From a virus, in the IMG/VR virus record IMGVR_UViG_3300047160_005727, positions 1 to 64,000 of that record: a stretch of DNA of 64,000 nucleotides, one strand, 5' to 3'. Below the pieces are notes generated by a model that did no database searches, was not told where the DNA came from, and saw nothing but the letters and a program-made list of their open reading frames with translations. Shown in pieces: positions 24,530-47,224 of this stretch. Position 1 is the first letter of the stretch. Each line of letters starts with the position of its first letter. Both the position numbers and the translations under genes were made by a program.

Positions 24530-26506
24530 ATGCCCGATGATCTTTTTACCAACCCCCTGGTAGGTGTCCCCAACCAGAACCAGGTCGATACCGTCAACAA
24601 GATCCTGGGATGGGGTGGTCTGGCGCTGGCCGGCGGTGCCGCAGCGCGTGGTCTGACCGGGCTCGGTCAGTTCTTCGGCCGCGAGACGGGTGGTGAGCCC
24701 AAGACGCCGATGCGGCAGTCGTTTGTGCGGATCCCGGTGCCGGTCAAGGTGAAGACCCGCGCCGAGCGCGATGCCATGCTTGCGCAGGCCCAGGAAGAGA
24801 TCGACAAGGAAGCGGCATTCGCCAAGCTGGCCGAGGACTCCTTCGGGGCGACTATCGCCCATTTGGGCGGTCTACTTCGCGAACCCCACGAGCAGGTAGG
24901 CTTGCTACGCAAGACACTCAGCGGCTGGGGTGAGCCTGGTATGGCGCAGAAGCCATGGACCTACATAGCTGCGCCGCTTGCTATCGGTGGTGGGCTTTAC
25001 GGTGGCTGGAAGCTGACCGACTATCTGCTCAACAAGACCCGCTCGGCCGAACAGGAAAGCGAGCTGGAGTCTGCGCGCAAGGAATACGAGTCGGCTCTGG
25101 CCGGTCGGCGAAAGCTGGCGTCGGCCGAGCCAGATCCGCTCGATGATCTGGCTGCTGAGTACGAGAAGCGGGCGCTTGTCAACGAACTTGCGGGTATTGG
25201 CCTGGGCGCTGCCGGACTCACAGCCTTGCTTTCTGGGCTGGGCACCTACCGCTGGACGAGATCACTGGCCGAGGACAAGGCTGTCGAAGAAGCGGTACGT
25301 CGCCGGCAGGCCCAGCTTGCCGAGCAGTCACCCAGTCCGATCATGGCGGTCCCGACGCCGGTGCCGATCTACGAGCCTCGCAAGCCAGCCTGGCATCGCC
25401 TGCTTGGTCACGGTGACGACACGGACAAAGGTCTGGCCGGCGAGGGCGATCGTCCCATGCGGTTCGGCGAGCACAAAGCGGCCATGGCCAAGGAAGCTGC
25501 CGAGGTTGTCCACGGTGGTCCGATCTCGAGCTGGACTGGTGCCACGCTGGGGCGTGCTGGTGCCACGCTTGCCGGGCTCCCGGTATTAACTATGGACACG
25601 CTGCGCAGCCCCGAGTACCCCGAGCGGTTCAAGGAGCACGAGAAGCTCGTCAAGCAGTTCGAGAAGGTCCGGCCGCAGCAGCTTTCCGATGTCAAGGTTC
25701 GGCTGGGCGGCACCGACACGATCGATGACATCATCAGGACCTGGCAAAACCGGCGGACCGGTCCCATCGGTAAGGTTCTGGGTACGCTCGGGGCGCCGAT
25801 GGGCAACCTGCGGTCAACACTGATGCGAAGTCCGCACTACAACCCATACTCGAACGCCGTGGTTCAGTTCGCGCATAGCAAGCCGATCACGCAGCACGAG
25901 CTGGGTCATGCTATCGACTTCAACCAGGTGGAGCCCTCCAAGAACTTCTGGCAGCGCCAGCTTCAGGGTACGGGCCGTGATCTTTATGGGCTGGCTTACA
26001 GCGCGATCCCGTTCGCCAACCTGTGGCATGAAGCCCAGGCCAACAACCAGAGCCGGCTGGCGCTGGAAGACATCTACAAGAAGAACCCGGCCAAGCTGCG
26101 AGCTGAAGAAGTCGAACGGTTGAAAGTCCTGCCGGCCGGTTACGGATCGTACGTCGGCGGCAACCTGCTGGGTGCCCCTGGTGCTACCATAGGCTCGCTC
26201 GCCGGCAAGGGCCTTGGTATGGGCTTGAGCGCCATTCATGCCGCTGGCAAGGACGAGCCGGTCAAGAAGCCGAAGAAGTCGGAGCCCGATCACAAGAAGG
26301 CTGCCAGCATCAACCAAGCTGCCGATGACTTCCTGGGCCGGATGCGATCCAACCAGATGGCCGTCTGGAACCGGCTGATGACGCCGACTGATGGCAAGCC
26401 GGCCAAGCCCGCGAAACCGGCCGAACCACTTCCACCCCGCCTTCCCACCCTGGCTGGACTGGGCGGCGGTACAGCGCAGCATTTACCGGTAACTGACGCG
26501 AGGTGA
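24530..26506 (+). CDS. Multi-module virion protein: TM/glycine-zipper modules plus a zincin metallopeptidase
   Basis: QHELGHAID (HExxH) with HEAQAN as likely third ligand; K-x-A motifs between modules. Confidence 0.78.
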   Translation: MPDDLFTNPLVGVPNQNQVDTVNKILGWGGLALAGGAAARGLTGLGQFFGRETGGEPKTPMRQSFVRIPVPVKVKTRAERDAMLAQAQEEIDKEAAFAKLAEDSFGATIAHLGGLLREPHEQVGLLRKTLSGWGEPGMAQKPWTYIAAPLAIGGGLYGGWKLTDYLLNKTRSAEQESELESARKEYESALAGRRKLASAEPDPLDDLAAEYEKRALVNELAGIGLGAAGLTALLSGLGTYRWTRSLAEDKAVEEAVRRRQAQLAEQSPSPIMAVPTPVPIYEPRKPAWHRLLGHGDDTDKGLAGEGDRPMRFGEHKAAMAKEAAEVVHGGPISSWTGATLGRAGATLAGLPVLTMDTLRSPEYPERFKEHEKLVKQFEKVRPQQLSDVKVRLGGTDTIDDIIRTWQNRRTGPIGKVLGTLGAPMGNLRSTLMRSPHYNPYSNAVVQFAHSKPITQHELGHAIDFNQVEPSKNFWQRQLQGTGRDLYGLAYSAIPFANLWHEAQANNQSRLALEDIYKKNPAKLRAEEVERLKVLPAGYGSYVGGNLLGAPGATIGSLAGKGLGMGLSAIHAAGKDEPVKKPKKSEPDHKKAASINQAADDFLGRMRSNQMAVWNRLMTPTDGKPAKPAKPAEPLPPRLPTLAGLGGGTAQHLPVTDAR

Positions 26507-26513
26507 TCATGCC

Positions 26514-29500
26514 ATGCCGAGCGTCCTCGGGGAGTCAGCACTTGGGCCAATACATCACGTCCCGCGCGATGGCGATGGCGACGGCCATGTCCATGATGGA
26601 ACGACGAAGGAGCACACAGTCTCGCGTTCGCCAGCGCTTCCGAAGCACGAAGCTAACGGGCTGCGGTCTTTCGGCGACTCTGACTCTATCCGAGCCCGGA
26701 TCCATGACCGAGTCCGTGAAGCTGCCAGTAACATCCCACCCATCACCAACCAGCGACACACCCTGACTCTCGAGGACGTCGGCTACGAAGGTGCCACCCA
26801 GCACGGTATCAACGACTGGAAGAAAGCTATCCTGGGCGGGCGTAGCTTGGGCTCGCGGCTCCGCGGCACCTGGGTGCTGACCGATAACGACACTGGCAAG
26901 GTCATCGAGAAGAAGCGATCGACCGTGGCCACGGTCCCCTACATGACCAGCCACGGCACGTTCGTCCAGAACGGCACCGAGTACACCCTGTCGCACCAGC
27001 TCAGGCTCCGGCCCGGTGTGTTTACCCGCGTGCAGCAGAATGGCGAGCTGGAAGCCCATGTCAACGTGATGCCGGGCAAGGGTGTCGCTCACCGCATCTT
27101 TATGGAGCCGGACACAGGCGTCTTCCGGCTCAAGGTCGGCCAGTCCAAGATGCCCCTGACGTCGGTCCTGCGCGCGATGGGCGCCAGCGACCGGCAGTTG
27201 CACGACGCCTGGGGTGACAACTACCAGGCCAACATGCTCAAGGACGACCCGTCCGTCATCGGCAAGCTGCACTCCCGGCTGGTTCGCAAGCCTGACTCGA
27301 CTAAGACCCCCGAGCAGGAAGTCCGTGAGTCGTTCGAGGGAATGGGGCTCGATCCCGAGGTCACCAAGCGCACTCTGGGCAAGCCCTACGATCGTGTCTC
27401 GCTCGACCAGATGCTGGATACCACCAAGAAGCTCATGGCCATCAACAAGGGTGAGGCCGAAACCGACGATCGCGACCACCTGGCCTACATGACTGCTCTG
27501 GGACCGGAAGACCTGATGGCCGAGCGGGTCGGCAAAGACCGCATGCTCTTGGGGAAGGTTCTTTGGAAAGCATCGATGACTGGCGGGCTCAAGCATGTCC
27601 AGCCGGACTTGCTCACTCGCGGCATCAACGCGGCCATCATGAGCAGCGGGCTCGGCCAGCCTACCGAGGGCATCAACCCGGCCATGATCTTCGACCAGCA
27701 GGCCCGGATCAGCCGGCTGGGCGTGGGCGGTATCCCATCGGTCGACTCGGTCCCGGCTGAAGCTCGTAACGTCCAGCCTTCGCACTTCGGTCTGATCGAT
27801 CCGCTGGTCACTCCCGAGAGCTTGCACGTCGGCATCGATAGCCGGGTGGCCCAGGGAACCATGAAGGGTGACGACGGTCGGCTCTACACGCCGTTCCGGA
27901 ACGTGAAGACTGGCCGTATGGAGCACCGGAGCGCCCAGGACCTGGCTGATGCTGTCATTGCTTTTCCAGGTGAACTGAACACCCTCAAGCCTCATGTCTC
28001 GGCGCTGGTGGGCGGCAAGATCCGGGACGTGCCCCGGAACCAGGTGCAGTACGAGCTGCCCAACATGGACGACGCCTTCAGCTCGATCTCGAACCTGGTG
28101 CCCCTCAAGTCCACTGTGAAAGGCCAGCGCGAGGTCATGGCCGGCCGCATGATCACCCAGGCGCTGCCGGTGTCGAACCCGCAGGCCCCGATGCTGCAAG
28201 CCGGCATCCAGGGCAGTAACGACAGCTACGAGTCCCGCTACGGCAAGCACATGGGTGCCTTGCACAGTGATGTCGGCGGCACCGTGGAGCATGTGGACAA
28301 GGACAAGGGCACGATCACGGTTCGCGGCGATGACGGGCAGCTGCGCAAGCACGAGCTTTATGTCAACTATCCCTATAACAGGAAGACTTATATCCATCAG
28401 ACACCAACCGTCGGGGTTGGGGACCGGGTCAACAAGGGTAGTCTGCTGGCCCGGTCTAACTACACCGACGAGCATGGCGTGGCTGCCCTGGGCCAGAACG
28501 CCCGCGTGGCCTACATTCCGTTCCGCGGACAGAACTTCGAGGACGCGATCGTTATCAGTGAGTCGATGGCCAAGCGGATGTCCTCGGAGCACATGTACCA
28601 GCACTCGCTCGACGCGGAAGAGGGGCTCAAGCCCAGCAAGAAGGCCCATGTCTCGATCTTCCCCGGGCGCTACGACAAGAAGATGCTGGAGACCATCGAC
28701 AACGAGGGCGTGGTCAAGCCCGGCACGATCGTCAACCACGGCGATCCGCTGATCCTGGCGGTCAAGGAACGTGAACGTACCCACGGAGCTATCAGCCGGG
28801 GCCGGTCGGCCTCCTGGGCCGATCACTCGAAGACCTGGGACCATCATGCTCCCGGTGAAGTGACTGACGTCGAGAAGACGCCCAACGGCATCGTGGTCTC
28901 GGTCAAGAGTACCAACCCGATGGAAGTCGGCGACAAGATGTCCGGCAGGTACGGGGACAAGGGAGTGGTTTCGTCGATCGTGCCCGACCACGAGATGCCC
29001 CACGACAGCCAGGGACGACCGTTCGAGGTGTTGTTGAACCCGCTGGGTATCATCTCCCGGACGAACCCGGCACAGAACATCGAGACGGCGTTGGGCAAGA
29101 TCTCCGAGAAGACGGGCCGGCCTTACCGGGTCGTCGACTTCGACAACAACCGTGACTATACCGAGTGGGCCATCGAAGAGCTGGCCAAGCATGGCATGAA
29201 GTCGACCGACACGATCCACGATCCGAGTTCGGGCCGGGATATCCCCAAGGTGCTTACTGGCAGCCGCTGGTTCATGAAGCTGCACCATACCAGCGAGTCC
29301 AAGGCCCAGGGCCGTGGCACCGGTGGCTACACGGCCGAGGGTACACCAGCGCGCGGCGGCGAAGCCGGCTCCAAGCGGATCTCTCTGATGGACATCAACG
29401 CGCTCTTGTCGCACGGAGCGACCGAAGTCCTGCGTGATGCTGGCGCAGTCCGGGGTCAGGCCCATCCGGAATTCTGGCAGCAGTTCATGGCCGGCCAGCC

Positions 29501-30983
29501 GATGCCTACCCCCAAGAGGCCGATGGTCTACGACAAGTTTATTAACTTGCTCAAGGCTGGCGGCATTAACGTGGTACGCCAGGGCACCAGGCTCAATGTC
29601 ATGGCCCTGTCTAACAAAGACGTCAACGAGCTGGCCGGCGATCGGGAGATCAAGCACGCCGACACGGTGGACTGGAAAGGGGGCATGAAGCCCCTGAAGG
29701 GTGGCCTGTTCGACGAAGCCCTGACCGGCGGCCACGGCGGTAACCGGTGGTCCTACATCAAGCTGGCCGAGCCCTTGCCCAACCCAGCCATGGAAGAGCC
29801 GATCCGCCGGATGCTGGGGCTCACCCAGGACAAGTTCATGAGCGTGCTGTCGGGCAAGGAGCAGCTCAACGGGCGTACGGGCTCGGAAGCCATATCCCGG
29901 GCGCTGGACGACATCGACATCGACAAGTCGATCGACCAGGCCAGGGCGGACATCCGGTCGGGCCGCAAGGGAGCGCGCGACGCGGCTGTGCGCAAGCTCG
30001 GCTATCTGAAGTCGGCCAAGCAGTATGGGCTGCACCCTCGCGACTGGATGCTGGACAAGGCCCCCGTGCTGCCGCCGGCTTTCAGGCCCGTCTCGACCAT
30101 GGCCGGCAGCAAGCTGCCGCTGGTGGCCGACGCCAACTATCTCTACAAGGAGCTGATCGAGGCCAGGGATAACCTGCGCGAGATGAAGGGTAAGGTTGGC
30201 GACGTATCCGAAGAACGGCAGGCTGCCTACGATGCCCTGAAAGCTGTAACCGGCCTGGGCGATCCGCTCCACCCCAAGAACAAGGAAAAGGGTGTCCGGG
30301 GCATGCTCAAGCAGGTCTTCGGCAACAGCCCCAAGTCGGGCATCGTCCAGCGCAAGCTGCTGGCTAGTGCGACCGACCTGGTGGGCCGAGCTACCATCGT
30401 GCCCAACCCCGATCTCGACATGGACCAGGTTGGGCTCCCGGAGAACCGGGCCTGGGATGTCTACCAGCCCTTCATCGTTCGCCGGCTGGTGCGCAGAGGT
30501 ATGAACCGGATCGACGCTGTTCGAGCTGTTCGGGACCGCCGGCCCGAAGCTCGTGAAGCAATGGTCACCGAGATGGATGCCCGGCCGGTCATCATCAACC
30601 GGGCTCCGGTACTTCACCGGTACGGCATCATGGCCTTCAGGCCCAGGCTCGAGAAGGGCGATACGTTGCACGTATCCCCACTGATCGTTTCGGGGTTCAA
30701 TGCTGACTTCGACGGCGATGCCATGCAGTATCACGTGCCGGTCACCGATGAGGCAGTCCGGGACGCCTACGAGAAGATGTTACCCTCCAGGAATTTATTA
30801 GCTGCTGCCTCATTTAAGGTTCACATTTTGCCTTCCAGAGAATATGCTGGCGGTCTCTATGCAGCATCATCGGCGAAGTCTGATAAACGGCCAAGAGTCT
30901 TTGCCACCAAAGCAGATGCGATGGCTGCCTATCGACGTGGCGACATCAATGTTGATCAGCCCATCGAGATCGTCCAGCACTAA
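26514..30983 (+). CDS. rpoB-rpoC(N): Phage multisubunit RNA polymerase: beta subunit fused to the N-terminal (catalytic) half of beta'
   Basis: Beta motifs: VQPSHFGLIDPLVTPES, NFEDAIVISE, GDKMSGRYGDKG, LNPLGIISR, MKLHH. Beta' motifs: GGLFD, VLPPAFRP, NRAPVLHR, NADFDGD (30699-30719). Confidence 0.95.
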   Translation: MPSVLGESALGPIHHVPRDGDGDGHVHDGTTKEHTVSRSPALPKHEANGLRSFGDSDSIRARIHDRVREAASNIPPITNQRHTLTLEDVGYEGATQHGINDWKKAILGGRSLGSRLRGTWVLTDNDTGKVIEKKRSTVATVPYMTSHGTFVQNGTEYTLSHQLRLRPGVFTRVQQNGELEAHVNVMPGKGVAHRIFMEPDTGVFRLKVGQSKMPLTSVLRAMGASDRQLHDAWGDNYQANMLKDDPSVIGKLHSRLVRKPDSTKTPEQEVRESFEGMGLDPEVTKRTLGKPYDRVSLDQMLDTTKKLMAINKGEAETDDRDHLAYMTALGPEDLMAERVGKDRMLLGKVLWKASMTGGLKHVQPDLLTRGINAAIMSSGLGQPTEGINPAMIFDQQARISRLGVGGIPSVDSVPAEARNVQPSHFGLIDPLVTPESLHVGIDSRVAQGTMKGDDGRLYTPFRNVKTGRMEHRSAQDLADAVIAFPGELNTLKPHVSALVGGKIRDVPRNQVQYELPNMDDAFSSISNLVPLKSTVKGQREVMAGRMITQALPVSNPQAPMLQAGIQGSNDSYESRYGKHMGALHSDVGGTVEHVDKDKGTITVRGDDGQLRKHELYVNYPYNRKTYIHQTPTVGVGDRVNKGSLLARSNYTDEHGVAALGQNARVAYIPFRGQNFEDAIVISESMAKRMSSEHMYQHSLDAEEGLKPSKKAHVSIFPGRYDKKMLETIDNEGVVKPGTIVNHGDPLILAVKERERTHGAISRGRSASWADHSKTWDHHAPGEVTDVEKTPNGIVVSVKSTNPMEVGDKMSGRYGDKGVVSSIVPDHEMPHDSQGRPFEVLLNPLGIISRTNPAQNIETALGKISEKTGRPYRVVDFDNNRDYTEWAIEELAKHGMKSTDTIHDPSSGRDIPKVLTGSRWFMKLHHTSESKAQGRGTGGYTAEGTPARGGEAGSKRISLMDINALLSHGATEVLRDAGAVRGQAHPEFWQQFMAGQPMPTPKRPMVYDKFINLLKAGGINVVRQGTRLNVMALSNKDVNELAGDREIKHADTVDWKGGMKPLKGGLFDEALTGGHGGNRWSYIKLAEPLPNPAMEEPIRRMLGLTQDKFMSVLSGKEQLNGRTGSEAISRALDDIDIDKSIDQARADIRSGRKGARDAAVRKLGYLKSAKQYGLHPRDWMLDKAPVLPPAFRPVSTMAGSKLPLVADANYLYKELIEARDNLREMKGKVGDVSEERQAAYDALKAVTGLGDPLHPKNKEKGVRGMLKQVFGNSPKSGIVQRKLLASATDLVGRATIVPNPDLDMDQVGLPENRAWDVYQPFIVRRLVRRGMNRIDAVRAVRDRRPEAREAMVTEMDARPVIINRAPVLHRYGIMAFRPRLEKGDTLHVSPLIVSGFNADFDGDAMQYHVPVTDEAVRDAYEKMLPSRNLLAAASFKVHILPSREYAGGLYAASSAKSDKRPRVFATKADAMAAYRRGDINVDQPIEIVQH

Positions 30984-30995
30984 TGGAAGGGTCAA

Positions 30996-31604
30996 GTGGC
31001 AACCTCAACGGAACGAGCCAGGGCTCGTCGAGCCGCTGGTCTTTGCATCACCTGCCTGAAGAAGCACAAGTCCGGTCGAGCCCGCTGCCAGAAGTGTCAT
31101 GACAGATGTCTGGCTGCACAACGTAAGTCTCGTCGTGAACGGACTGCTCGTAATATCTGTCCCTGCGGCAAACCGCCAGTGGCGGGTAAGCGACTTTGCA
31201 AGAAATGTCAGAAGGTACAGGTCACTATCACCAGAGCACGAATGAAGCGCTATCGTGCCGCCGGCCTATGTTGTTGCGGTAAGCCTCCGGTTACTGGTAA
31301 GAAGTCGTGTGGTGCCTGTCTGGAAACCTTCAGGCGAGCGCATCAGAAACTTCGAGATGAAGTCTTCGCCGCCTATGGTGGTTACATCTGCAAGTGCTGT
31401 GACGAGACCATACCCGAGTTCCTTGAACTTGATCATATCGACAATAACGGCGGGAGCCATCGCCGCAAGATCGGATCCGGTATGATGTATCGTTGGTTGA
31501 AGACGCACGGCTTCCCGCCCGGCTATCAGGTACTCTGCTCGAACTGTCACTTCGCGCGGCATCGTCATGGCCGTTGTCCGCATGAAGCCCTTAAGCTAAG
31601 ATAA
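30996..31604 (+). CDS. Free-standing HNH endonuclease with Cys-rich repeats
   Basis: Repeated CxxC units, then CKCC.E...LELDHIDNNG...YRWL...GFP.GYQVLCSNCH. Lower GC than flanking genes. Confidence 0.85.
   Translation: MATSTERARARRAAGLCITCLKKHKSGRARCQKCHDRCLAAQRKSRRERTARNICPCGKPPVAGKRLCKKCQKVQVTITRARMKRYRAAGLCCCGKPPVTGKKSCGACLETFRRAHQKLRDEVFAAYGGYICKCCDETIPEFLELDHIDNNGGSHRRKIGSGMMYRWLKTHGFPPGYQVLCSNCHFARHRHGRCPHEALKLR
31574..31602 (+). promoter_or_regulatory. Sigma70-like promoter TTGTCC-N17-TAAGAT
   Basis: 17-bp spacing at the 3' end of the HNH gene, ahead of 31654. Confidence 0.4.
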
Positions 31605-31653
31605 CGGCGAGCACGGTTCGAGGACCGATCAACCTACAACAAGGACGTGAGCC

Positions 31654-32403
31654 ATGGCCGTGACCCCGCTTATCAACCCGCATCTGCGAGCCGTAGCACG
31701 GTGGCGAGTCGGCAGTGATGTCCTGGACGACAGCGAGTTCGAGAAGACCGCACAGCCCCCCGGCGACCCGACTGCCGGTGGTGGAGCGCCGCCTGCGCCG
31801 ATGCCAGATCCTGCGGCTATGGCTGCTGGTGGCGGTGGTGCGCCTCCGCCGCCCGGCGGCCCGCTTGATCCGGCGACACTGGCTCAGATCACCCAGGCGG
31901 TCCACGGCTCTGGCGGCGGCCCTGGCGGACCCCATGGTAAGGGCGGCGGCAAGAAGGCTGAGCAACAGCTCCTGGATACCAAGCTGTGGACGATCCAGTT
32001 CCTACTGGTGAAGATCTGTGAGAACCTCCAGATCCAGGTACCGCCTTCGATCGTGGTCGGCCCGCCGCCCGATCAGATGATGATGCAACAGGCACAGCAA
32101 GAGCAGGCAGCCCCTGGCGGTGGCGGCGCCAACATCGAAGGAGCCGGCGGGGGTGGAGGTGGCCCGGCCGGACCTGGCCCGATCCCGCCATTGACAGCTG
32201 ACCAAGGCCCGATCGGCGGCGCGCCTGGCGGTGGCGGCATGAAGGCAGGTTCCGCCATCAGTAACCTGTCCAACCTGATCGATACTGGCCGCAGGTCGTT
32301 TGACGTCGGCTCCGAGTATGCGCTCGACTCGCTGCGTGAAGTCCGTAGCAAGGCAGCGGCCATGGCTGCTCTTTCGAGATCACTCAAGAACGGTGCTGCA
32401 TGA
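31654..32403 (+). CDS. Pro/Gly-rich virion-associated protein
   Basis: FEKTAQ and RSKAAA motifs; low-complexity Pro/Gly tracts around a short helical core. Confidence 0.7.
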   Translation: MAVTPLINPHLRAVARWRVGSDVLDDSEFEKTAQPPGDPTAGGGAPPAPMPDPAAMAAGGGGAPPPPGGPLDPATLAQITQAVHGSGGGPGGPHGKGGGKKAEQQLLDTKLWTIQFLLVKICENLQIQVPPSIVVGPPPDQMMMQQAQQEQAAPGGGGANIEGAGGGGGGPAGPGPIPPLTADQGPIGGAPGGGGMKAGSAISNLSNLIDTGRRSFDVGSEYALDSLREVRSKAAAMAALSRSLKNGAA

Positions 32404-32654
32404 TCCTGGAGATACTCGACGGTCTGGGGCATCCCATTGTGATCCCGGCCACCCGCGTGGTGATCAAGAGCTACAACGGGACACCTCTGGCTGCGGCTGT
32501 GGAATGGGAAGGCAGCGAGGACGGGACGCACATCACGGTAGCTCACGCCAACGATAAGAACTTCAACCAGGTCCTGGCCAACCTCGGCCTCGACCGGGTC
32601 AAGGTCGATACGGTTACGCCCAAAGCTCTCAGCGACTACGCCTGGCGGGTTTGA
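32400..32654 (+). CDS. Small hypothetical protein
   Basis: ATGA overlap with the upstream stop; 84 aa. Confidence 0.72.
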   Translation: MILEILDGLGHPIVIPATRVVIKSYNGTPLAAAVEWEGSEDGTHITVAHANDKNFNQVLANLGLDRVKVDTVTPKALSDYAWRV

Positions 32655-32682
32655 GCTAAAGATCGGGCGTTTTCTTGTCATA
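32655..32682 (+). promoter_or_regulatory. Bipartite motif GCTAAA-N15-TGTCATA, copy 1
   Basis: Identical boxes recur at 33337 and 34051, each at the start of a unit. Confidence 0.65.
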
Positions 32683-32689
32683 TAGAAGT

Positions 32690-33066
32690 GTGGGACGCCT
32701 ATGTCGTTTCCACCTGCCAGCTCCTGTTCCCTTTTCATGGGAGTCTGTGGCAGTAGCCGATCCTTGGTACGTCACGCTCGTTGCGTACGTATCGCCAAGG
32801 TCACGGCAACGGGAAAAGGGCCGGAAAGCTACCGGAGCTGGTTCGGGTTTAGCGACTCTCGGACAGGAGAGGAAGTACCCGAGGCAATATGACTGTGTCG
32901 CCTGGTTGACTTTGTGCTGGGGATCGCCGCGTCTAGTCAACGCGGAACACTCCTACAAGGTCAAGACCCGGCCATCCGTAGCAAGACTGCGGAGCGGACC
33001 AGGATGGTTCATGCAACACGGTGGGTACCCGTGCGCTGCGGAAGGGGCTGTCTCCCCTTCTTTTTT
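32690..33066 (+). ncRNA. Candidate structured RNA A
   Basis: Lies between the promoter motif and an intrinsic terminator. Stems: CCTTGG/CCAAGG, GTTGACT/AGTCAAC, CCATCC/GGATGG, TCCGTAG/CTGCGGA, CACGG/CCGTG. Confidence 0.5.
33041..33066 (+). terminator. Intrinsic terminator
   Basis: GAAGGGG-CTGTCT-CCCCTTC followed by T6. Confidence 0.8.
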
Positions 33067-33084
33067 CACTTGCCCATGAAGTGA

Positions 33085-33322
33085 TGTAGCTGGTTGACTT
33101 TCTTGTGTGACATCTTTGAGCTGCCCGGCACCCCCGCACGTCCGCGTGGGGCCCATTACGCCGACGTGGTGGACGCACCACGACGAAGACGGATGGATCA
33201 GTCCAAGGCCAGGCTACCTGCGACAAGACCGCAGGATGGTCGGAGGGGAGGTTCCCTGACCCGACAAGCGACATGGTGATATTCCATGCAACGCGGAAAA
33301 AGGCTAACAACCTTTTTTTTTT
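33085..33322 (+). ncRNA. Candidate structured RNA B, related to RNA A
   Basis: Stems: CGTGGTG/CACCACG, CCTGCG/CGCAGG, GTCGG/CCGAC, CATGG/CCATG. Shares four colinear motifs with RNA A and ends in T10. Confidence 0.5.
33297..33322 (+). terminator. Terminator-like hairpin with T-run
   Basis: AAAAAGG-CTAACAA-CCTTTTT with a T10 run; the stem is weak. Confidence 0.5.
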
Positions 33323-33336
33323 ACCTATCAGCGGAT

Positions 33337-33364
33337 GCTAAAACTTGGCGCCGGTTCTGTCATA
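33337..33364 (+). promoter_or_regulatory. Bipartite motif GCTAAA-N15-TGTCATA, copy 2
   Basis: Upstream of the 33494 ORF. Confidence 0.65.
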
Positions 33365-33493
33365 TACCAATGCAGTGCAGCTATGATCTGGGCTGATCAC
33401 CTGGATCGTCAAGTAGCTGTGTTGTACGGCGTGGGGTAGCACCTTGCCCCACGTCGTTTCGTTTACCATCAACAGGAGTAATGGAGGAGCGTA

Positions 33494-33925
33494 ATGACTA
33501 CAGAGGGAAACGGTATCGCGCGAATGGAGCAGGAGACAGTGGTGCATAAGCTATCGGACTGGTTGTTGCGGCAGCCAGGGCCATCGAAGCCGTACGTCGA
33601 AGCCGTGACCGGGCCGACGGAAGGCTTCAACATCGAGGGGACGTTTGCAGGGAAACCGATCTACGTGTTATGCAGCGGTGGCCCGCTGAACGAGCGCGAG
33701 GGAACGGAAGAATGGGCGACCCTGGACGGGATCATGGCCAAGGCCCTGTCCATGATGGAAGCCTACCGTGAAGATATCTGGCTCGCGGTCCCCAACTCTC
33801 CGGCGTTCGAGGCAGCAGCACGTAGTGCTGCTGCTAACCTGGAACTGGCCAAGCCCTGGCAGGCCATCGCGCTTGTCGGGCCAGGTGGGCAAGTGCGGTT
33901 CATCCAACGGCCGAAGACGGCGTAA
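33494..33925 (+). CDS. Hypothetical protein, possibly a degenerate PD-(D/E)XK nuclease fold
   Basis: GGAGGAG RBS; E..V...L..WL...G...FNIEG.....IYVLCSGG...IWLAVP...IALV pattern. Confidence 0.7.
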   Translation: MTTEGNGIARMEQETVVHKLSDWLLRQPGPSKPYVEAVTGPTEGFNIEGTFAGKPIYVLCSGGPLNEREGTEEWATLDGIMAKALSMMEAYREDIWLAVPNSPAFEAAARSAAANLELAKPWQAIALVGPGGQVRFIQRPKTA

Positions 33926-34024
33926 CGGATGTGACGGATGTAACGGTTGCAAGCGACAGCAAGCGACTGCAAGCGACTGCAAACGACAGCAAGTGACAGC
34001 AAATGTCGCAACCGTTACATCCGT
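33922..34024. repeat. Five 10-bp tandem repeats enclosed by a perfect 17-bp inverted repeat
   Basis: ACGGATGTAACGGTTGC (33934-33950) / GCAACCGTTACATCCGT (34008-34024). AARYGACWGC x5 (33951-34000). 9-bp GTRACGGWT x3 (33922-33948). Confidence 0.9.
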
Positions 34025-34050
34025 ACTTTTTTCCTGTTTTTTGGCTGTTT

Positions 34051-34079
34051 GCTAAAGCCACGGGCCATTCCGTGTCATA
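34051..34079 (+). promoter_or_regulatory. Bipartite motif GCTAAA-N16-TGTCATA, copy 3
   Basis: Upstream of the 34155 ORF. Confidence 0.65.
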
Positions 34080-34154
34080 AACTGTGAGGGGTATCATATC
34101 GCTTGATACCGATGGGAACCGTAGCAAGGGCCTGGCCCTTGAAAGGAGTTTTGA

Positions 34155-35087
34155 ATGGCTTCGGTTCAGAGAGTCACTGTCATGGTCGAACGCGATGGTA
34201 TAGGTGTCGAGACCATCACGTTCGAGCGAGGCGGCGACACGAGGATCACTTTGGACCTGTTCGAGAAGCGGTCTGTTTGCTTCTCGGTAAGCAGTCTGGA
34301 TGCCGGTTCTAATGCTCGACCACCGTTGCAAGAGGAACGGATAGCAGAGCCGGCACCCGTGTCGGAAGCAGTGAAAAGCCCGCCGTCATCATCCACACCA
34401 TCCCCGGTCGTTGAACCGGTGGAACCGCCCATGAATGGTGAAGTTCTACATGCGACACCAACAACGCATCTTGAAGGTGCGACTGCGGCCTCGCAAAAGG
34501 CAGCAGAGGGCGAGCGCTGGAAACACTACGATGATGACGATGAGCTATCGGATGATGATCTATCGCGGAAGGCTTCACCGAACTCGAAGGCTACCATGGC
34601 CACGGCGCTGAAGAGCAGGGGCAAGCCCAAGGATCAGCGACGTAGCAATGAGCACCCCGAGTACTACAGGAACCACCACGACTATCGTGGGCCAGACGGT
34701 AGATCGTGGCAGAAGCGCCCCGAGACGCTGACTGCCGAGCCGTTGGCTGTCGAACTGTCGACTCCTGAGTCACCTCCTATGGAGGACTCTGGATCGGCAA
34801 CGGTGGGTGCGGCGCTCTTGGATCCGGTGAAGCCTGGGGTATCCGCGTTCGCTTCGCTGGCTGCCGCGCCGGCTCCTGCTCCGAAGGCGTTCTTGCCGGG
34901 CACGCCCGAGTTCGTGCCCAGGCGGAAGCATCGGGACAGGAAACGAAAGAAGAAGACCAGCCGCAGAAACCAGGGCTGGTACAAGAACAAGTTGCGGGAT
35001 ATCGGGGGCAAGCTCCGATCGTCTCTTGATCTCTTGGGGGACCGTAAGGTTCTGCTTCCGATCGACATTCCTACGCCTTCGTCGTAA
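34155..35087 (+). CDS. Largely disordered hypothetical protein with acidic and basic tracts
   Basis: AAAGGAG RBS; DDDDELSDDD and RRKHRDRKRKKK tracts. Confidence 0.7.
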   Translation: MASVQRVTVMVERDGIGVETITFERGGDTRITLDLFEKRSVCFSVSSLDAGSNARPPLQEERIAEPAPVSEAVKSPPSSSTPSPVVEPVEPPMNGEVLHATPTTHLEGATAASQKAAEGERWKHYDDDDELSDDDLSRKASPNSKATMATALKSRGKPKDQRRSNEHPEYYRNHHDYRGPDGRSWQKRPETLTAEPLAVELSTPESPPMEDSGSATVGAALLDPVKPGVSAFASLAAAPAPAPKAFLPGTPEFVPRRKHRDRKRKKKTSRRNQGWYKNKLRDIGGKLRSSLDLLGDRKVLLPIDIPTPSS

Positions 35088-35090
35088 GTT

Positions 35091-35138
35091 ATGGGGGGAT
35101 GGGACGGCCTGCGGGCTGCCCTCCCCCATCCTTTTTTT
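35091..35138 (+). terminator. Intrinsic terminator
   Basis: GGATGGG...CCCATCC stem followed by T7. Confidence 0.7.
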
Positions 35139-35156
35139 AACTATCAGGCGGCAGGG

Positions 35157-37133
35157 ATGCTCAAGACGACCCTCGGTCAGATGATGCTGAACGATCAGCT
35201 CCCCGAGGACATGCGGGACTACACCCGCACCCTGGATAAGAAGGGTATCCAGAAGCTGTTCCAGGAAGTTGCCGAGCGGTATCCCGACAGATACCGAGAA
35301 GTGGCCAAGCGGCTCTCCGACATGGGCCGTGATGTTGCCTACTCTACCGGCGGCTTCTCTCCTAGCCTGGAAGACATGCGGCCCAGCAAAGCGGCTGAGC
35401 GCATCAAGGAACAGATCCGCCGGCACGTTCAGCTGATCCAGGCTGACAACCGGATGGATGACGAGCGCAAGTCACAGGCGATCGTTGCTGCCGTGGAAGA
35501 GCGGCAGAAGGAGATGGAGGATGCCGTCTTCGAGGAAGCCAAGGCATCTGGCAACCCCTATGCGCACCAGGTGGTTTCCGGTGCGCGGGGCAGCAAGCTC
35601 AACCTGAAGTCATTGCTGGGCTCGGACATGCTCTACGTCGATCACCACGATCGGCCGATCCCGGTGCCAGTGCTTAACGCATATCCGCGTGGGCTCTCGC
35701 CAGTCGAGTACTGGGCCGGTGCCTTCGGGGCTCGCAAGGGCGTCGCGGCCACCAAGTTCGCCACTCGAGATGCCGGCTCGCTGGCCAAGCAGCTCAACCA
35801 GGTTGCTCACCGGCTGATCATCACGGGCCATGACGACCCGAACGAAGACACATCCACGATCCGCGGGCTGCCGACGGCGACTGATGATCCCGACAATGAG
35901 GGGGCCTTGCTGGCTCATCCGGCCGGGCCGTATGGCCGGAACACGATCTTGACTCCCAAGATCCTCAAGGACCTCCAGACCAAAGGGCATGGCAAGATCC
36001 TGGTTCGATCACCCCTGGTAGGCGGACCGGCTCACGGTGGGGTTTTCGCCCGCGATGTCGGTGTCCGGGAGCGGGGCGGTCTGGCGCCCATGGGTGACTA
36101 TGTCGGTCTGGCTGCTGCGCAAGCTCTCTCCGAGAAGCTATCCCAGGGGCAGCTGTCAGCCAAGCATACCGGCGGTGTCGCCGGTGCCGACAAAGCTGTC
36201 TCCGGCTTTGCTCTTATCAACCAATTGATCCAGGTACCGAAAACTTTTACGGGCGGCGCTACCCATGCCCAGCTCGACGGCAAGATCACGTCGATCGAAG
36301 ATGCCCCCCAGGGTGGCAAGTATGTCAACGTCGGCAGCGAGCAGCACTACATACCGCACGGGCTCGACCCGACCGTCAAGATCGGTGACTCGGTCGAGGC
36401 CGGCGATACCATTTCAGGGGGCCTGCCCAACCCCGCAGAGATGGTCAAGCACAAGGGCATCGGCGAGGGTCGCCGCCATTTTGTCAAGGCGTTCGGGGAT
36501 GCCTACCGGGGCTCGGACATGGGTGCACACCGGCGAAACATCGAGCTTCTGGCCAGGGGCTTGATCGATCATGTTCGGGTAACGGACGAGTTTGGTGATC
36601 ATGTAGAGGACGACATCGTGCCGTACTCGACCATCGAGAAGAGCTGGAACCCGCGCGCGGGTTCCAAAGTGGTCGGACTGTCGTCGGCTGTGGGTAAGTA
36701 CCTCGAACGTCCTGTCCTGCATCACAGCATTGGCACCAGGGTCAAGCCCGGGATGCTTCCCGAACTCAAAGAGTTCGGGGTCAATAACCTGGAGGTTCAT
36801 GATGAACCTCCGCCGTTTGAGCCGACGATGATCCGGGGCCAGTACAACCTCCAGCACGACCCCGACTGGATGACCCGGCATATCGGTTCCGGACTGGAGA
36901 AAGCCACCCTCCAGGCAGCTCACCGGGGCTCCAGTAGCGATATCGCTGGTACGAGCTATGTCCCTGCACTGGCAGAACGTACGCACTTCGGCAGGCAGGG
37001 TCCGACCCAGGGTTGGCACCCGGAGGCGCAGCATTGGGACGACGATGACGATAATATAGGCCACGACGATACGCCAAAAGTGCGGCCCCATACGCCAGCC
37101 GGCGCCAGGACCGCTACCTGGCGGTCTGACTGA
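35157..37133 (+). CDS. rpoC(C): Phage RNA polymerase beta' C-terminal half
   Basis: TTLGQ, SGARGS, bridge helix GLSPVEYW..AFGARKG...T.DAG.L...L, trigger loop GLAAAQALSE..SQ....KHTGG, HRRNIELLAR. Confidence 0.92.
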   Translation: MLKTTLGQMMLNDQLPEDMRDYTRTLDKKGIQKLFQEVAERYPDRYREVAKRLSDMGRDVAYSTGGFSPSLEDMRPSKAAERIKEQIRRHVQLIQADNRMDDERKSQAIVAAVEERQKEMEDAVFEEAKASGNPYAHQVVSGARGSKLNLKSLLGSDMLYVDHHDRPIPVPVLNAYPRGLSPVEYWAGAFGARKGVAATKFATRDAGSLAKQLNQVAHRLIITGHDDPNEDTSTIRGLPTATDDPDNEGALLAHPAGPYGRNTILTPKILKDLQTKGHGKILVRSPLVGGPAHGGVFARDVGVRERGGLAPMGDYVGLAAAQALSEKLSQGQLSAKHTGGVAGADKAVSGFALINQLIQVPKTFTGGATHAQLDGKITSIEDAPQGGKYVNVGSEQHYIPHGLDPTVKIGDSVEAGDTISGGLPNPAEMVKHKGIGEGRRHFVKAFGDAYRGSDMGAHRRNIELLARGLIDHVRVTDEFGDHVEDDIVPYSTIEKSWNPRAGSKVVGLSSAVGKYLERPVLHHSIGTRVKPGMLPELKEFGVNNLEVHDEPPPFEPTMIRGQYNLQHDPDWMTRHIGSGLEKATLQAAHRGSSSDIAGTSYVPALAERTHFGRQGPTQGWHPEAQHWDDDDDNIGHDDTPKVRPHTPAGARTATWRSD

Positions 37134-37229
37134 CGGTATGATGTGAGCGAGACCTTTTGCCTTGTACGGAGACACCGACCTATGGCAGCATCCAAGAGAC
37201 CGCGACCGAAGAACAAAGACGGCTCAGAC

Positions 37230-37493
37230 ATGAGCACCAAGGACCTGATCCAGGCCGCAGAGGACGCGCAGGCAGCTTTCGACGATGCTTCTGCCCAGTT
37301 CGGAGCGGCGGCACAGCAGGTGCAGCAAGCTCAGACCATCCTCACAGCCGCTAACCAGGCCGTTCACGATGATCTTGCCGAAAACGGTGCGTGCGTCATC
37401 GTCGATGACACGACTTCTCCAGTCACGGTCACGATGTACACCGCCAATGATCCTGACAGCTTCACGGCCACGCCGATCCGCGTTGCGGAATGA
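37230..37493 (+). CDS. Small hypothetical protein, paralog 1
   Basis: AVHDDL.ENG.C..VD..T.P.TVT.Y...DPDSF.AT.IRVA shared with the next ORF. Confidence 0.75.
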   Translation: MSTKDLIQAAEDAQAAFDDASAQFGAAAQQVQQAQTILTAANQAVHDDLAENGACVIVDDTTSPVTVTMYTANDPDSFTATPIRVAE

Positions 37494-37505
37494 TCGGAGG
37501 GTGTC

Positions 37506-37781
37506 GTGCGTGGTAACGGACTGACCACCAAACAGCTGATCGACGCCGCACTGCGAGCCCAGTCGGCGTACAGCTGGTCTGTCATCGTGCTTGGACGGGT
37601 GGCACAGGCTGTCAGGGCAGCCTTTGTCACCGTCCAGGCAACGAGCAAGGCCGTTCACGATGATCTTGAGGAAAACGGGCCGTGCTGCGTCGTGGACAAC
37701 TCGACCAACCCACCCACAGTGACAGCCTATATTCCTGCTGACCCCGACTCATTCATGGCTACTCAGATCCGGGTAGCCTGA
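37506..37781 (+). CDS. Small hypothetical protein, paralog 2
   Basis: GGAGG RBS and GTG start; paralog of the preceding ORF. Confidence 0.75.
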   Translation: MRGNGLTTKQLIDAALRAQSAYSWSVIVLGRVAQAVRAAFVTVQATSKAVHDDLEENGPCCVVDNSTNPPTVTAYIPADPDSFMATQIRVA

Positions 37782-37804
37782 GACTATTTCGGAAGGAGTC
37801 GGTC

Positions 37805-38356
37805 GTGACCCCGCGAGAGCTAGGACGGCAAGCCGCTCTCTTGCACCTGAAAATGGCCGCAGCCTCGGCGACAACATCATCATCGAGCAGCAGTCCCAGT
37901 CTCAGCACCTCCGGTACTGGAACTCCGACTAGCACTGGAGGTGCAGCTTCGGCAACGACGCTCGGCGCCAAGCCGGGGAACATTGCTCCGGCACCGGCGG
38001 TCCCAAATGTCACGCCGCAGCCTGGCGCAGCGCCGGGTGGCAGTGTGACCCAACCATCGCTCGCAACAACACGACCTGCGCCACCGGCTCCAGCCCCGGC
38101 AGCCCCGGCCGGCGGACTCGGCGCCGGAGCCGGCGCCAGCGCTGGAGGCGGACTCGGCGGTATGCTTGGCGGACTGATGAACCCACAGATGCTCGGACAG
38201 CTGATGGCAGGCCCGCTCAAGGGGCCTGCTGAACAGTTTCTGGGAATGGGTGGCTTTCCGCTTCTGGCTGGTGGAAGCAATGCGCTGCTTCGCGGAGGTC
38301 AAGATATCGGTAATATCATGAAGGGGTCGATCGGTAACGTGAAAGCCGGAGCGTAG
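37805..38356 (+). CDS. Low-complexity virion-associated protein
   Basis: MTPRELGRQAALLHLKMAA leader followed by Ser/Thr/Pro/Gly tracts; AAGGAG RBS. Confidence 0.72.
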   Translation: MTPRELGRQAALLHLKMAAASATTSSSSSSPSLSTSGTGTPTSTGGAASATTLGAKPGNIAPAPAVPNVTPQPGAAPGGSVTQPSLATTRPAPPAPAPAAPAGGLGAGAGASAGGGLGGMLGGLMNPQMLGQLMAGPLKGPAEQFLGMGGFPLLAGGSNALLRGGQDIGNIMKGSIGNVKAGA

Positions 38357-38427
38357 ATGGAGTAGGCCCAGCGAACGCGGGGGCGAACGCTGGGCCCTGA
38401 CGACAACCTGTGCAAGAGGTCATCGTC

Positions 38428-39180
38428 ATGCCTGAGTCTATTGCGAGTGTGAGACGGCGTCGACAAAAGCGGTTGCTGGCTGGACTGTGCGTACGTTGCG
38501 GCGATCGGCCGCCAATACTAGGGATGACCAAGTGTGATAAGTGTCGGGAGAGTAGTCTGGCATGCTATGCAAGGCAAGTCGCTCGGGGTAAATGTACGGG
38601 GTGTGGCGGTAAGACTTCCGGGCGGGTCCATTGCGAAGACTGTAGACGCAGAGAACGGGATAAAGAAATACAACGGATCAAAGCCGGACTCTGTGCTGAC
38701 TGTCGGAACCACCATGATGGAAAGACAAGACGATGTGAAACTTGTCGCACTAGAAAGCGAGTCGCTGATCAACAGCAACGCGATAGGGTCTTCGCGGCTT
38801 ATGGCGGCTATCACTGCAACTGCCCTGGTTGCAACGAGACTGAGCCGGTCTTTCTCGAGATCGATCATATCGAAGGTGGTGGCAACAAGCACCGTAGAGC
38901 GGTCGGGCGAAGCAACCTTTATCGGTGGCTCTGCAAGAACAAATTTCCTCCCGGTTTTCAAGTCCTATGTGCTAACTGCAACCGTGGCAAATACCGCCTC
39001 GGAGTCTGCCCTCATCAGCTGAGCAAGGAGGCTCGTCCATGCCTGCCGCAACCATCAGTCGCAGCCGCTCCGAGATCGTCCAGCGGCGCGAGCTACTCGT
39101 CAAGGTCGCTGACGGGGCCGGGGACGGCCAAGACCAGGCGTTCGAGCAGGCATTCGCCAACTTGGCTCACGCCTACCTGA
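38428..39180 (+). CDS. Free-standing HNH endonuclease with Cys-rich repeats, paralog of 30996; the tail overlaps the next gene
   Basis: VFAAYGGY.C.CPGC.E...FLEIDHIEGGG..HRR...LYRWL....FPPGFQVLCANCN. Confidence 0.85.
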   Translation: MPESIASVRRRRQKRLLAGLCVRCGDRPPILGMTKCDKCRESSLACYARQVARGKCTGCGGKTSGRVHCEDCRRRERDKEIQRIKAGLCADCRNHHDGKTRRCETCRTRKRVADQQQRDRVFAAYGGYHCNCPGCNETEPVFLEIDHIEGGGNKHRRAVGRSNLYRWLCKNKFPPGFQVLCANCNRGKYRLGVCPHQLSKEARPCLPQPSVAAAPRSSSGASYSSRSLTGPGTAKTRRSSRHSPTWLTPT

Positions 39181-41633: not shown

Positions 41634-41644
41634 GAGCTGCACCG

Positions 41645-42142
41645 ATGGCCGATACCAGTTCGCAAGGGACTAACCAGTTTCCTGTCGCCGTTACCGGCGG
41701 CCAGATCGTCCGTCTTGCGCTTGGTGCACCGGCGATGGGCTTGATCATGAAGGCCACGATCGTGCAGCTCAACGCAGATGGGAGCGCGATCGCTGATGGC
41801 AACGCCGCGCTGGGTGGCTTCTCATATACGTTCTTTGATGCGGGTATTGCCTGTCCTCCTGGGGTAACGAACATATCCGATGAGGCCACTACGCCTCTCG
41901 TTACCGCCGCCGCAGAGGCCCAACACCAGATCTCACCAACCAAGACAGTACCGTCTGGTAAAAGCCGCTTTCTACTTGCAGACGGTACCGACGGGACTTT
42001 CTCACAGATCGGCATTCCCTACATCAACCGGGATGGCAGCTTATCGAGTGCTCAGCCCGTGATCTACCTGAAGCTGGTAGCACCGGGCAGCGGACCCAAG
42101 ACCTTCGGTGTTTTCATGGGGATCCAGCACTACCGCGGCTGA
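41645..42142 (+). CDS. Hypothetical beta-rich structural protein
   Basis: AGGAG RBS; 165 aa. Confidence 0.7.
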   Translation: MADTSSQGTNQFPVAVTGGQIVRLALGAPAMGLIMKATIVQLNADGSAIADGNAALGGFSYTFFDAGIACPPGVTNISDEATTPLVTAAAEAQHQISPTKTVPSGKSRFLLADGTDGTFSQIGIPYINRDGSLSSAQPVIYLKLVAPGSGPKTFGVFMGIQHYRG

Positions 42143-42161
42143 TACGCGGCGTAACAAAGTC

Positions 42162-43124
42162 ATGATCCACAACTACTCAGCACGAAACCCTCGCAGACCA
42201 GTCGACTGGAGATGGAAGCGCGCCGGACTGGCCGCTGGTGGCGGGTATCCGCTGTCGCGACGGCGGGACAATGACGCGTGGATCGCCCGCGCGGCACGGT
42301 TCATCAAGGAACATGAAGAATGCAAGACTGAGCAGGATCTTGCCGTGCTGGAGGATAAGTACCCGGTCCTCTATTGGGCTTATGATATCTGGTTTACCCA
42401 GAACGAGGGCGGCAACCCGGTCAAGAGCGAGGTCGAGGCCAGGTTGCTGGCTGATGACGACCCGCACAACATCGCCCGTCGCGTGCGGACTGAAGTCGAT
42501 GTTATTGATGCTTACGAGCACATTTTTTTCAACGTCAGCGAAAGTTTGGGCAACCGCGGCTATCTCATGCATTGCGTCCTCGGGCCGGCGGTTCATCTGG
42601 GTTTCCAGACCAGCGAATACGATATGATCTGGAAGCTGTTCGCACTTCTGGGTGGACCACTGGCTGTTGACCTTATGGTCGATCAGTCGGTAGGTCATGC
42701 CCGGCCCGACCGTGCCAGCGATCTGAAGTACTTCGTCGCCGACGTCGCCCAGAACGATCTGCGCCGCGTGGCGATGCTCGCTTTGAAGACCTTGCGCATT
42801 AACAACTTCAACGCCGTCGAGATCATTGACCGGTTCTTGAAGCTAGTCGAGCTGGAACGGACTGGCGGCGGTGCCGGCGGTGGTGCCAACGAGGCATTCA
42901 AGCAGAATGTTCATACCATGCTTGTCGGGCTGCCGTTCACGGTCGGCCGGCGGCTGGGGCGTGTGGACGTGACTCCGATCGGCCGTTACGATGATCTGGC
43001 GGCCGAACTTCGCTACGAAGAGGTTATGGCGATCGCGGCCGGCCAGATCATCCCCGCACAAAGTATGCTGGAGATGCTGGCATTTCCATCGGCTAATGGG
43101 TCCATCACGGAGGCTACGGACTAA
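42162..43124 (+). CDS. Hypothetical protein (head module)
   Basis: Helical ~320-aa ORF coupled to the next gene by a TAATG overlap. Confidence 0.75.
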   Translation: MIHNYSARNPRRPVDWRWKRAGLAAGGGYPLSRRRDNDAWIARAARFIKEHEECKTEQDLAVLEDKYPVLYWAYDIWFTQNEGGNPVKSEVEARLLADDDPHNIARRVRTEVDVIDAYEHIFFNVSESLGNRGYLMHCVLGPAVHLGFQTSEYDMIWKLFALLGGPLAVDLMVDQSVGHARPDRASDLKYFVADVAQNDLRRVAMLALKTLRINNFNAVEIIDRFLKLVELERTGGGAGGGANEAFKQNVHTMLVGLPFTVGRRLGRVDVTPIGRYDDLAAELRYEEVMAIAAGQIIPAQSMLEMLAFPSANGSITEATD

Positions 43125-45671: not shown

Positions 45672-45672
45672 C

Positions 45673-47172: not shown

Positions 47173-47224
47173 GTCTTTGCACTCGGGCACGGCTGCTGCA
47201 TCGGTCAAAGGAGTGACCCCACTC

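Follow-up and report, generated by a model that had tools for sequence, protein, structure and literature searches.

On the usual view, a multisubunit RNA polymerase (RNAP) cannot do without an alpha-like platform for its assembly or without two structural zinc sites. The locus described here raises the question of how a bacterial-type polymerase core might be put together with neither. It lies in the first 64 kb, positions 1 to 64,000 (hereafter the window), of the 141,143-bp IMG/VR virus record IMGVR_UViG_3300047160_005727, which as a whole we call G000. Two genes are in question: one joins the beta subunit to the N-terminal part of beta' in a single chain (beta::beta'-N), and the other encodes the remainder of beta' (beta'-C). 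We consider it highly probable that they specify the catalytic core of the phage's only RNAP, a bacterial-type, two-barrel enzyme that would be built from two chains and work with a sigma factor. The features on which this view rests are listed first.

26514-30983, plus strand: fusion gene beta::beta'-N, encoding P0001 (1489 amino acids (aa), no cysteine), with PF00562 and PF00623 in one open reading frame (ORF).
26514-29573, plus strand: beta portion of the fusion, residues 1-1020, by alignment to residues 100-1099 of Thermus beta.
29574-30983, plus strand: beta'-N portion of the fusion, residues 1021-1489, matching Taq beta' at E 3e-53.
29700-29750, plus strand: site of the deleted zinc ribbon (GGLFDEALTGGHGGNRW), by alignment to bacterial beta'.
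35091-37133, plus strand: beta'-C gene, encoding P0002 (680 aa, no cysteine), by PF04998 (E 2e-15) and alignment to bacterial beta'.
35691-35795, plus strand: bridge helix of beta'-C, by alignment to bacterial beta'.
35826-35852 and 36003-36062, plus strand: remnants of zinc site II in beta'-C, by alignment to bacterial beta'.
36138-36185, plus strand: trigger loop of beta'-C with its histidine, by alignment to bacterial beta'.

The fusion occupies a single, uninterrupted frame and is collinear over 95-97% of its length with gp206 of Salmonella phage Arash and with 0261 of Vibrio phage D69. Following a poorly conserved N-terminal extension of about 70 aa, residues ~72-1020 match bacterial beta as far as its C-terminal helix (PF00562, E 7.5e-54; Thermus beta, E 4e-72), which reads FINLLKAGGINV and spans residues 1009-1020 (nucleotides (nt) 29538-29573). 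The beta barrel is present with its conserved lysine motif (GDK..G.KG) as GDKMSGRYGDKGVVS at residues 806-820; GDKMSGRYGDKG lies at nt 28929-28973. About five residues beyond the C-terminal helix beta' begins, with MALSNKDV standing where bacterial proteins have IALASPD, and the C-terminus of beta is thereby fused to about residue 17 of beta'. From residue 1044 to 1486 the alignment to bacterial beta' is weak over Taq residues 24-51 and strong over residues 192-569 (E 3e-53); the helices of the clamp coiled-coil, at nt 30126-30185, align well. The catalytic double-psi barrel of beta' carries NADFDGD at residues 1396-1402 (nt 30699-30719; PF00623, E 5.6e-23), and P0001 ends 87 aa past this motif.

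The missing part of beta' is supplied by the second gene. P0002 matches bacterial beta' from TTLGQ (nt 35166) to about residue 520 and retains a recognisable, region-H-like C-terminus; its true start is probably the ATG at 35157 (M23), because the equivalent of Met23 is where almost every relative starts. The cut in beta' lies just past its double-psi barrel, between IEIV and TT(V/L)G. The trigger-loop histidine (LSAKHTGG) is present and is invariant in the clade alignment of beta'-C (A2), and the position equivalent to Arg933 is a serine. The catalytic elements are all intact, namely the lysine motif of beta, NADFDGD, the bridge helix and the trigger-loop histidine. A preliminary description of this DNA had placed the passage from beta into beta' at about 29570-29600, the end of the fusion soon after NADFDGD and the restart of beta'-C at TTLGQ 4.2 kb downstream, and had regarded the trigger-loop histidine as kept; all four readings are borne out, with the joint located just after nt 29573.

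A separate observation concerns the rifampicin pocket. The equivalent of cluster I, at nt 27642-27734, reads in the alignment as strongly substituted, including the positions of E. coli F514, D516 and H526. An altered pocket of this kind suggests that the phage RNAP is insensitive to rifampicin.

The genes belong to a phage. A major head (capsid) protein gene lies in the window at 49701-50645 (a match to phrog_2522 and a homolog of Arash gp226), and G000 holds homologs of the Arash terminase, capsid protein, structural proteins gp13, gp14, gp222 and gp236, and sigma factor gp10. Because a phage head protein occurs together with Arash-type terminase and structural homologs, G000 is phage DNA and not chromosome, and the earlier assignment of the RNAP to a phage is upheld. 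The GC content at third codon positions (GC3) of the RNAP genes, 0.73-0.80, is like that of the other phage genes of G000. Near-identical copies of the RNAP gene were present in 24 soil-metagenome DNA runs; there was no RNA run among the sequencing runs listed as holders of the gene.

The same layout recurs widely. All ten IMG/VR loci related to the window (L004-L013; 50-84% identity, contigs of up to 235 kb) combine the fusion with a separate beta'-C gene, situated 1.2-4.2 kb downstream of the fusion gene. A search with the junction region returned 1770 metagenomic proteins at E <= 1e-10, and the best 120 of these carry PF00562 and PF00623 in one protein without exception (120/120), mostly at a length of 1460-1490 aa; relatives of beta'-C number 3896 in the representative library. 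Cultured phages with the layout are Arash (gp206 and gp216) and Vibrio phages D69, D148 and D181, at 31% identity and 95-97% coverage. Recurrence across these sources, namely the ten IMG/VR loci, four cultured phages and the top 120 metagenomic matches, excludes an origin by chance. The layout is real, functional-looking and evolutionarily fixed, and the group in which it is fixed is a large clade of phages of ~180-235 kb, found in great abundance in metagenomes of soil and water.

The RNAP genes of this clade also gather foreign material. Those of L006-L013, D148 and D181 are interrupted at at least six sites by insertions of ~1-2.3 kb. Some of these are in-frame inteins (L007 and L008; Pfam intein and LAGLIDADG domains occur in metagenomic homologs), and those that change frame suggest introns or endonuclease genes. 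The RNAP genes of the window are uninterrupted and free of inteins. In many relatives beta'-C bears a C-terminal extension of 300-1100 aa and of variable content (for example L004:18627-22736 and L010:19397-23569), which in L004 comprises an acylphosphatase-like domain, a P-loop kinase and DUF5661; no such extension follows beta'-C in the window.

G000 is 68% complete as estimated by CheckV, and for this reason absences of genes were argued by way of complete relatives. Neither the alpha dimerisation domain (PF01193) nor omega (PF01192) was found in any of five genomes, three of them 100% complete, while 14 of 14 control genomes were positive. The three 100%-complete relatives and Arash each have a single beta' barrel, and G000 yields one match to P0001; since the barrel is single in each, there is one RNAP per genome. 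The preliminary statement that no alpha, sigma or ribosomal genes are nearby stands within the window and fails for sigma at the level of the genome, where the following gene lies elsewhere.

86011-86832 of G000, outside the window, and 796-1614 of locus L015: sigma-70-family gene (273 aa, no cysteine), by Pfam, profile and fold match.

The sigma gene is present in one copy each in G000, the three complete relatives and Arash. Pfam recognises its region 3 (Sigma70_r3, 28.7 bits against a cut-off of 25.3) and, weakly, region 4; its family profile matches SigA and RpoS at E 2e-13 over regions 2-4; and an AlphaFold2 model (predicted local distance difference test (pLDDT) score 83) has sigma factors as its only fold matches. 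A search of G000 with PF04542, which represents sigma region 2, gave no match, and the gene was instead recognised with the help of Arash gp10, of Pfam region 3 and of the family profile. Its product is the orthologue of gp10, which was itself detected in Arash virions (PMC10585845).

We propose that beta::beta'-N and beta'-C would pair up as a two-chain catalytic core in which the covalent link between beta and beta' may stand in for the assembly platform that an alpha dimer would provide. In bacteria the clamp coiled-coil of beta' is the main docking site of sigma. It is fairly probable that the phage sigma docks on the retained clamp helices and steers the phage core to phage promoters. Weighing against so self-contained a scheme, the factor could bind host RNAP instead, and the phage core may use host alpha or omega.

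Bacterial beta' carries a C4 zinc ribbon between GLFxxRIFG and RMGHIEL. In the window this ribbon is swapped for about seven residues, and the replacing stretch, GGLFDEALTGGHGGNRWSYIKL (nt 29700-29750), has no cysteine, in line with the earlier claim that the N-terminal zinc finger is deleted. A short, cysteine-free replacement is likewise present in 119 of the 120 fusion homologs and in Arash and D69; the deletion (GGLFD...TGG..G..W) is clade-wide. At zinc site II the four cysteine positions are now D, G, F and D (GHDDPNED; VRSPLVGGPAHGGVFARDVG). Here the clade is divided: the cysteines are absent in the window, L004, L005, L006 and L009, and in all of the 150 best representatives, which follow the pattern x-G/S-Y/F-D, whereas Arash, D69 and L007 retain them. 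Since these three keep the site while the window's subclade has lost it, the loss of site II is derived within the clade, in a large subclade. The proposal that both zinc sites are gone is thus right for the window's subclade and wrong for the clade as a whole.

Cysteine has been lost more generally. P0001, P0002 and sigma together contain none in 2432 residues, where the mean of 1.17% over the ORFs of G000 predicts 28.5 (Poisson P = 4e-13). Likewise 91 of 97 full-length fusion homologs have no cysteine; the Arash fusion protein has one in 1525 aa, and Arash beta'-C has four only, all zinc ligands. Cysteine is also missing from the capsid protein and from several large proteins of the head region, while the terminase, the ribonucleotide reductase and other enzymes contain it. 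Across G000 the cysteine content is bimodal, with replication and metabolic enzymes at 1-3%. Proteins with none are the RNAP, sigma, the capsid protein and the products of ORFs 24530-26506, 47177-48520, 79063-82776 and 106246-107583; ORFs 7595-12325, 39039-41633 and 23-3595 have one or two cysteines in about 900-1600 aa.

Where does such an enzyme act? The reading that we favour, with reservations, is that the capsid carries the RNAP together with sigma and that both are delivered along with the DNA. This reading is supported by the virion data for Arash, by conserved gene order and by a cysteine-free composition like that of the capsid protein. In mass spectrometry of Arash virions gp206 has the most spectra of all proteins (3516), above the major capsid protein, gp216 has 1210, and sigma gp10 was recovered at 100% coverage (PMC10585845). 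The order RNAP, gp222-like protein, capsid protein is collinear between the window and Arash, and in both phages the RNAP genes lie in the head-gene region. On balance, a packaged enzyme and its sigma would enter with the DNA and begin to transcribe without relying on the host. The loss of both zinc sites might then be the result of selection, in proteins that are packaged and ejected, against cysteine and against dependence on metal.

The best-placed alternative is that the RNAP is not a virion enzyme at all: host RNAP, maybe redirected by the phage sigma, would read the early genes, the two RNAP genes among them, the phage RNAP would serve middle and late genes, and its detection in Arash particles would reflect carry-over. 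We judge this rather unlikely, although several observations speak for it and against packaging. The Arash virion proteome runs to 116 proteins and includes ribonucleotide reductases and other plainly non-structural enzymes (PMC10585845); because of the reductases the particles cannot be regarded as clean, and abundance alone may account for the RNAP in them. Sigma-70-family factors of phages that have no RNAP normally act on the host core, according to a review. The argument for packaging that the preliminary description drew from K-x-A motifs does not hold, as the RNAP has three sites against 1.9 expected in P0001 and none against 1.0 in P0002, and so lacks the enrichment that marks head-module proteins. 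Proteins outside the virion can be depleted in cysteine too, certain structural homologs, the gp222-like protein among them, contain it at normal levels, and the window phage itself is known from its sequence. Against the non-virion explanation stand the spectral count of gp206 and the full coverage of gp10, the absence of cysteine that RNAP and sigma share with the capsid protein, and the position of the RNAP genes in both phages; the single RNAP per genome fits an enzyme used from the start without proving that.

As regards the K-x-A motif itself, [VELI]-K-x-A is 5-13x over-represented in five head-region ORFs at 39039-48962 (z 4.6-9.3), which fits a prohead-protease or scaffold motif.

If packaging is accepted, it is tempting to extend the proposal to a self-sufficient, sigma-70-dependent, two-chain RNAP that dispenses with alpha, omega, zinc and cysteine, is packaged and delivered with the DNA, and runs all phage transcription. 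In such a scheme, doing without metal and thiols would adapt the enzyme to being packaged and ejected, and the covalent joint of beta and beta' would take the part of the alpha platform. A conserved 84-aa protein, whose gene lies between those of the two chains, might be a new small subunit keeping the halves of beta' together. We offer this combined scheme tentatively, as somewhat less likely than not.

The architecture could also be read as a polyprotein, with a phage protease cutting the 1489-aa product into beta and beta'-N to leave a mature enzyme of three chains like other phage RNAPs. In favour of this, G000 contains several ORFs of great length with more than one domain (12322-17946 is an example), beta'-C is joined to unrelated domains in relatives, and one I-K-H-A site lies near the joint, at residue 1046. 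This site is conserved in no relative, however, and K-x-A is not enriched in P0001. Moreover, the joint leaves no linker, because only about five residues separate two conserved helices, and uncleaved beta-beta' fusions exist in nature, as in the 2901-aa Helicobacter ORF. Cleavage of the fusion is therefore very improbable in our estimation.

The origin of the clade was approached through an unrooted tree in which beta and beta' were concatenated for six members of the clade and for 33 bacteria (nine named phyla and several unclassified lineages). The phage clade is monophyletic (Shimodaira-Hasegawa-like approximate likelihood ratio test (SH-aLRT) 100) and sits on a very long branch apart from all bacteria; within it the window groups with L009, L004 and L005, and Arash with D69. 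Its attachment is beside Patescibacteria in FastTree (0.93) and next to Campylobacterota in a site-heterogeneous posterior mean site frequency (PMSF) tree. Identity to bacterial rpoBC is 25-35%, with none of the 80 best loci among 185,579 species genomes above 35%. The idea that the genes are host rpoB and rpoC, captured recently or present as contamination and now decaying, would agree with bacterial beta and beta' being the best matches outside the clade but is effectively refuted by this low identity, by the monophyly and long stem, by catalytic motifs all kept over 31-84% divergence in the clade, by phage-like GC3 and by the capsid protein and terminase of the record. Recent capture from a known bacterium is excluded by these comparisons, and two histories are compatible with the data: the clade may be of pre-bacterial origin, or it may go back to an ancient capture followed by fast evolution. 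Of the suggestion that this is a deep-branching lineage, the distinctness survives, in the form of monophyly, a long stem and no close bacterial copy; the depth is not supported, as the attachment shifts with method in a tree that has no archaeal or eukaryotic outgroup.

The space of 4.2 kb between the two RNAP genes, and its surroundings, contain the following further features.

30996-31604, plus strand: free-standing HNH homing endonuclease (phrog_2255, E 1e-6).
31654-32403, plus strand: conserved ORF of 249 aa, with homologs at the same place in L005, L006, L008, L010 and L011.
32400-32654, plus strand: conserved ORF of 84 aa, found between the RNAP genes in L004-L006 and L008-L013.
32698-35090, no strand assigned: lineage-specific filler of 2.4 kb, by tblastx and blastn and by GC3 profile.

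Only 31638-32697 of the gap is conserved with the nearest relatives, and most of the gap consists of lineage-specific insertions. The HNH gene sits right at the end of the fusion gene, has a flat profile of GC3 and codon-position GC, and is absent from this place in L006 and L008; a paralogous HNH gene at 38410-39180, with 40% identity to it, is also flat in codon-position GC. The 2.4-kb filler has no homology even with an 84%-identical relative, which has its own, unrelated filler. A non-coding stretch lies at 32655-33493 and an ORF at 33494-33925 in the filler region, and a low-complexity basic ORF at 34155-35087 shares its frame with beta'-C and ends one codon ahead of the latter's first ATG. 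No RNA or tRNA match over 26000-39500 came from Rfam (E up to 0.1) or from ARAGORN. In L006 and L009 beta'-C follows directly after the small ORF.

The conserved ORFs of 249 and 84 aa possibly encode accessory proteins of the RNAP, and the smaller product is the candidate for such a role by virtue of its conserved position; L007 is the only related IMG/VR locus that does not have it. The 249-aa product has no match in Pfam, PHROGs or Atlas. The 84-aa protein has no Pfam match and no lead in Atlas; its AlphaFold2 model (pLDDT 71) is a small beta sandwich plus a helix, without a fold match in PDB (best Z 3.2, to a forkhead-associated (FHA)-like fold, which is not meaningful). No homolog of it was found among the small ORFs of Arash or D69.

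Elsewhere in the window, a LigD-type 3'-phosphoesterase occurs together with intein signatures and an SNF2-family helicase in ORF 12322-17946 (1874 aa). This helicase is a homolog of Arash gp217, which is encoded just after beta'-C in Arash and was detected in virions, and it may be an RNAP-associated ATPase. A portal gene upstream of the RNAP, as in Arash, was considered for ORF 24530-26506 and rejected, since this ORF has no similarity to Arash gp204.

How, then, does this polymerase relate to those already known? Its closest characterised counterparts are in Arash (OQ632216.1; PMC10585845) and in D69, D148 and D181, which have the same fusion, the same cut of beta' before TT(V/L)G and the same ribbon deletion. 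Arash further shares the gene order relative to the gp222-like and capsid genes, the sigma orthologue and the single RNAP. It differs in that its portal gene lies just upstream of the RNAP, where the window has an ORF that is not homologous, and in that the 84-aa ORF is not detectable; Arash and D69 have AADYDGD in place of NADFDGD and keep the four cysteines of site II. The Arash paper labels gp206 and gp216 simply beta and beta', and leaves the fusion, the split and the zinc sites unmentioned (PMC10585845).

With bacterial RNAP the enzyme shares domain order, catalytic motifs and a sigma-70-family partner, whereas it has no zinc ribbon, site II or cysteine, and the phage genomes have no detectable alpha or omega. 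Fusions of rpoB to rpoC do occur in Helicobacter, as the preliminary description stated: beta and beta' are joined head to tail in the 2901-aa Helicobacter anseris ORF. Unlike the natural fusions of Helicobacter and Wolbachia, that of the window stops after the barrel of beta', and the rest is a second gene. Cyanobacteria and plastids also have two beta' genes (gamma/RpoC1 and beta'/RpoC2) divided downstream of the barrel. Their cut lies about 70 residues farther downstream, with gamma aligning past the end of the fusion and RpoC2 only from residue 46 of P0002, and cyanobacterial beta is unfused and the zinc sites are kept, where the window RNAP is fused and has lost both.

Among phages, the RNAPs of phiKZ/AR9 type are likewise phage-encoded, have beta' split after the barrel, do without alpha and omega, and are in some cases virion-packaged. 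A review describes the split of beta' just after the double-psi barrel in phiKZ/AR9 and in cyanobacteria (PMC7598289). The beta' of Ralstonia phage RP13 is split at the same place as in the window and that of Escherichia phage IME392 about 30 aa upstream. At an identity of ~23%, a tree of beta' alone with RP13, IME392 and Kleczkowskaviridae would mainly reflect long-branch effects. The view that phiKZ-like RNAPs are split differently therefore needs qualification: it is correct for beta, which is split there and whole here, but the split of beta' after the barrel is shared and recurrent in phages. The mReC phages are, like this one, uncultured Caudoviricetes from IMG/VR with beta and beta' that can be aligned with cellular sequences and form a long separate branch (PMC7481178). 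They have separate beta (~1000-1560 aa) and beta' (~890-1390 aa) and a T4-type capsid protein, PF07068 (Weinheimer and Aylward 2020; PMC7481178). Membership of the window phage in mReC was rejected, as its genes are fused and split and its capsid protein (49701-50645) matches neither PF07068 nor any other Pfam family.

Phage multisubunit RNAPs and the split of beta' after the barrel were thus already known; what is new is the fused-and-split, zinc- and cysteine-free variant. The two-gene layout is not described in the searchable literature, including reviews of 2020, 2021 and 2026. It raises the questions of how a bacterial-type core is assembled without alpha, what purpose the zinc sites serve, and whether a 240-kDa polymerase can be packaged and ejected. 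Cultured members of the clade, Arash and the Vibrio phages, make the questions of alpha, zinc and packaging directly testable, and the RNAP may serve structural work as a compact, cysteine-free model enzyme. The window's own contribution is confirmatory, adding a further soil member that has lost both zinc sites and has no inteins.

The wider interest lies in the contrast with phage enzymes that have been studied. Those of phiKZ/AR9 type have beta in two to three chains, four to five chains in total, two sets of RNAP and no recognisable sigma-70 homolog, whereas the window phage has beta whole and fused, one RNAP set and a clear sigma-70-family factor. Where phiKZ and AR9 are highly fragmented, the present clade represents the opposite design: a core easily aligned with bacterial RNAP, yet made of two chains, with no metal sites or thiols and with a true relative of sigma-70.

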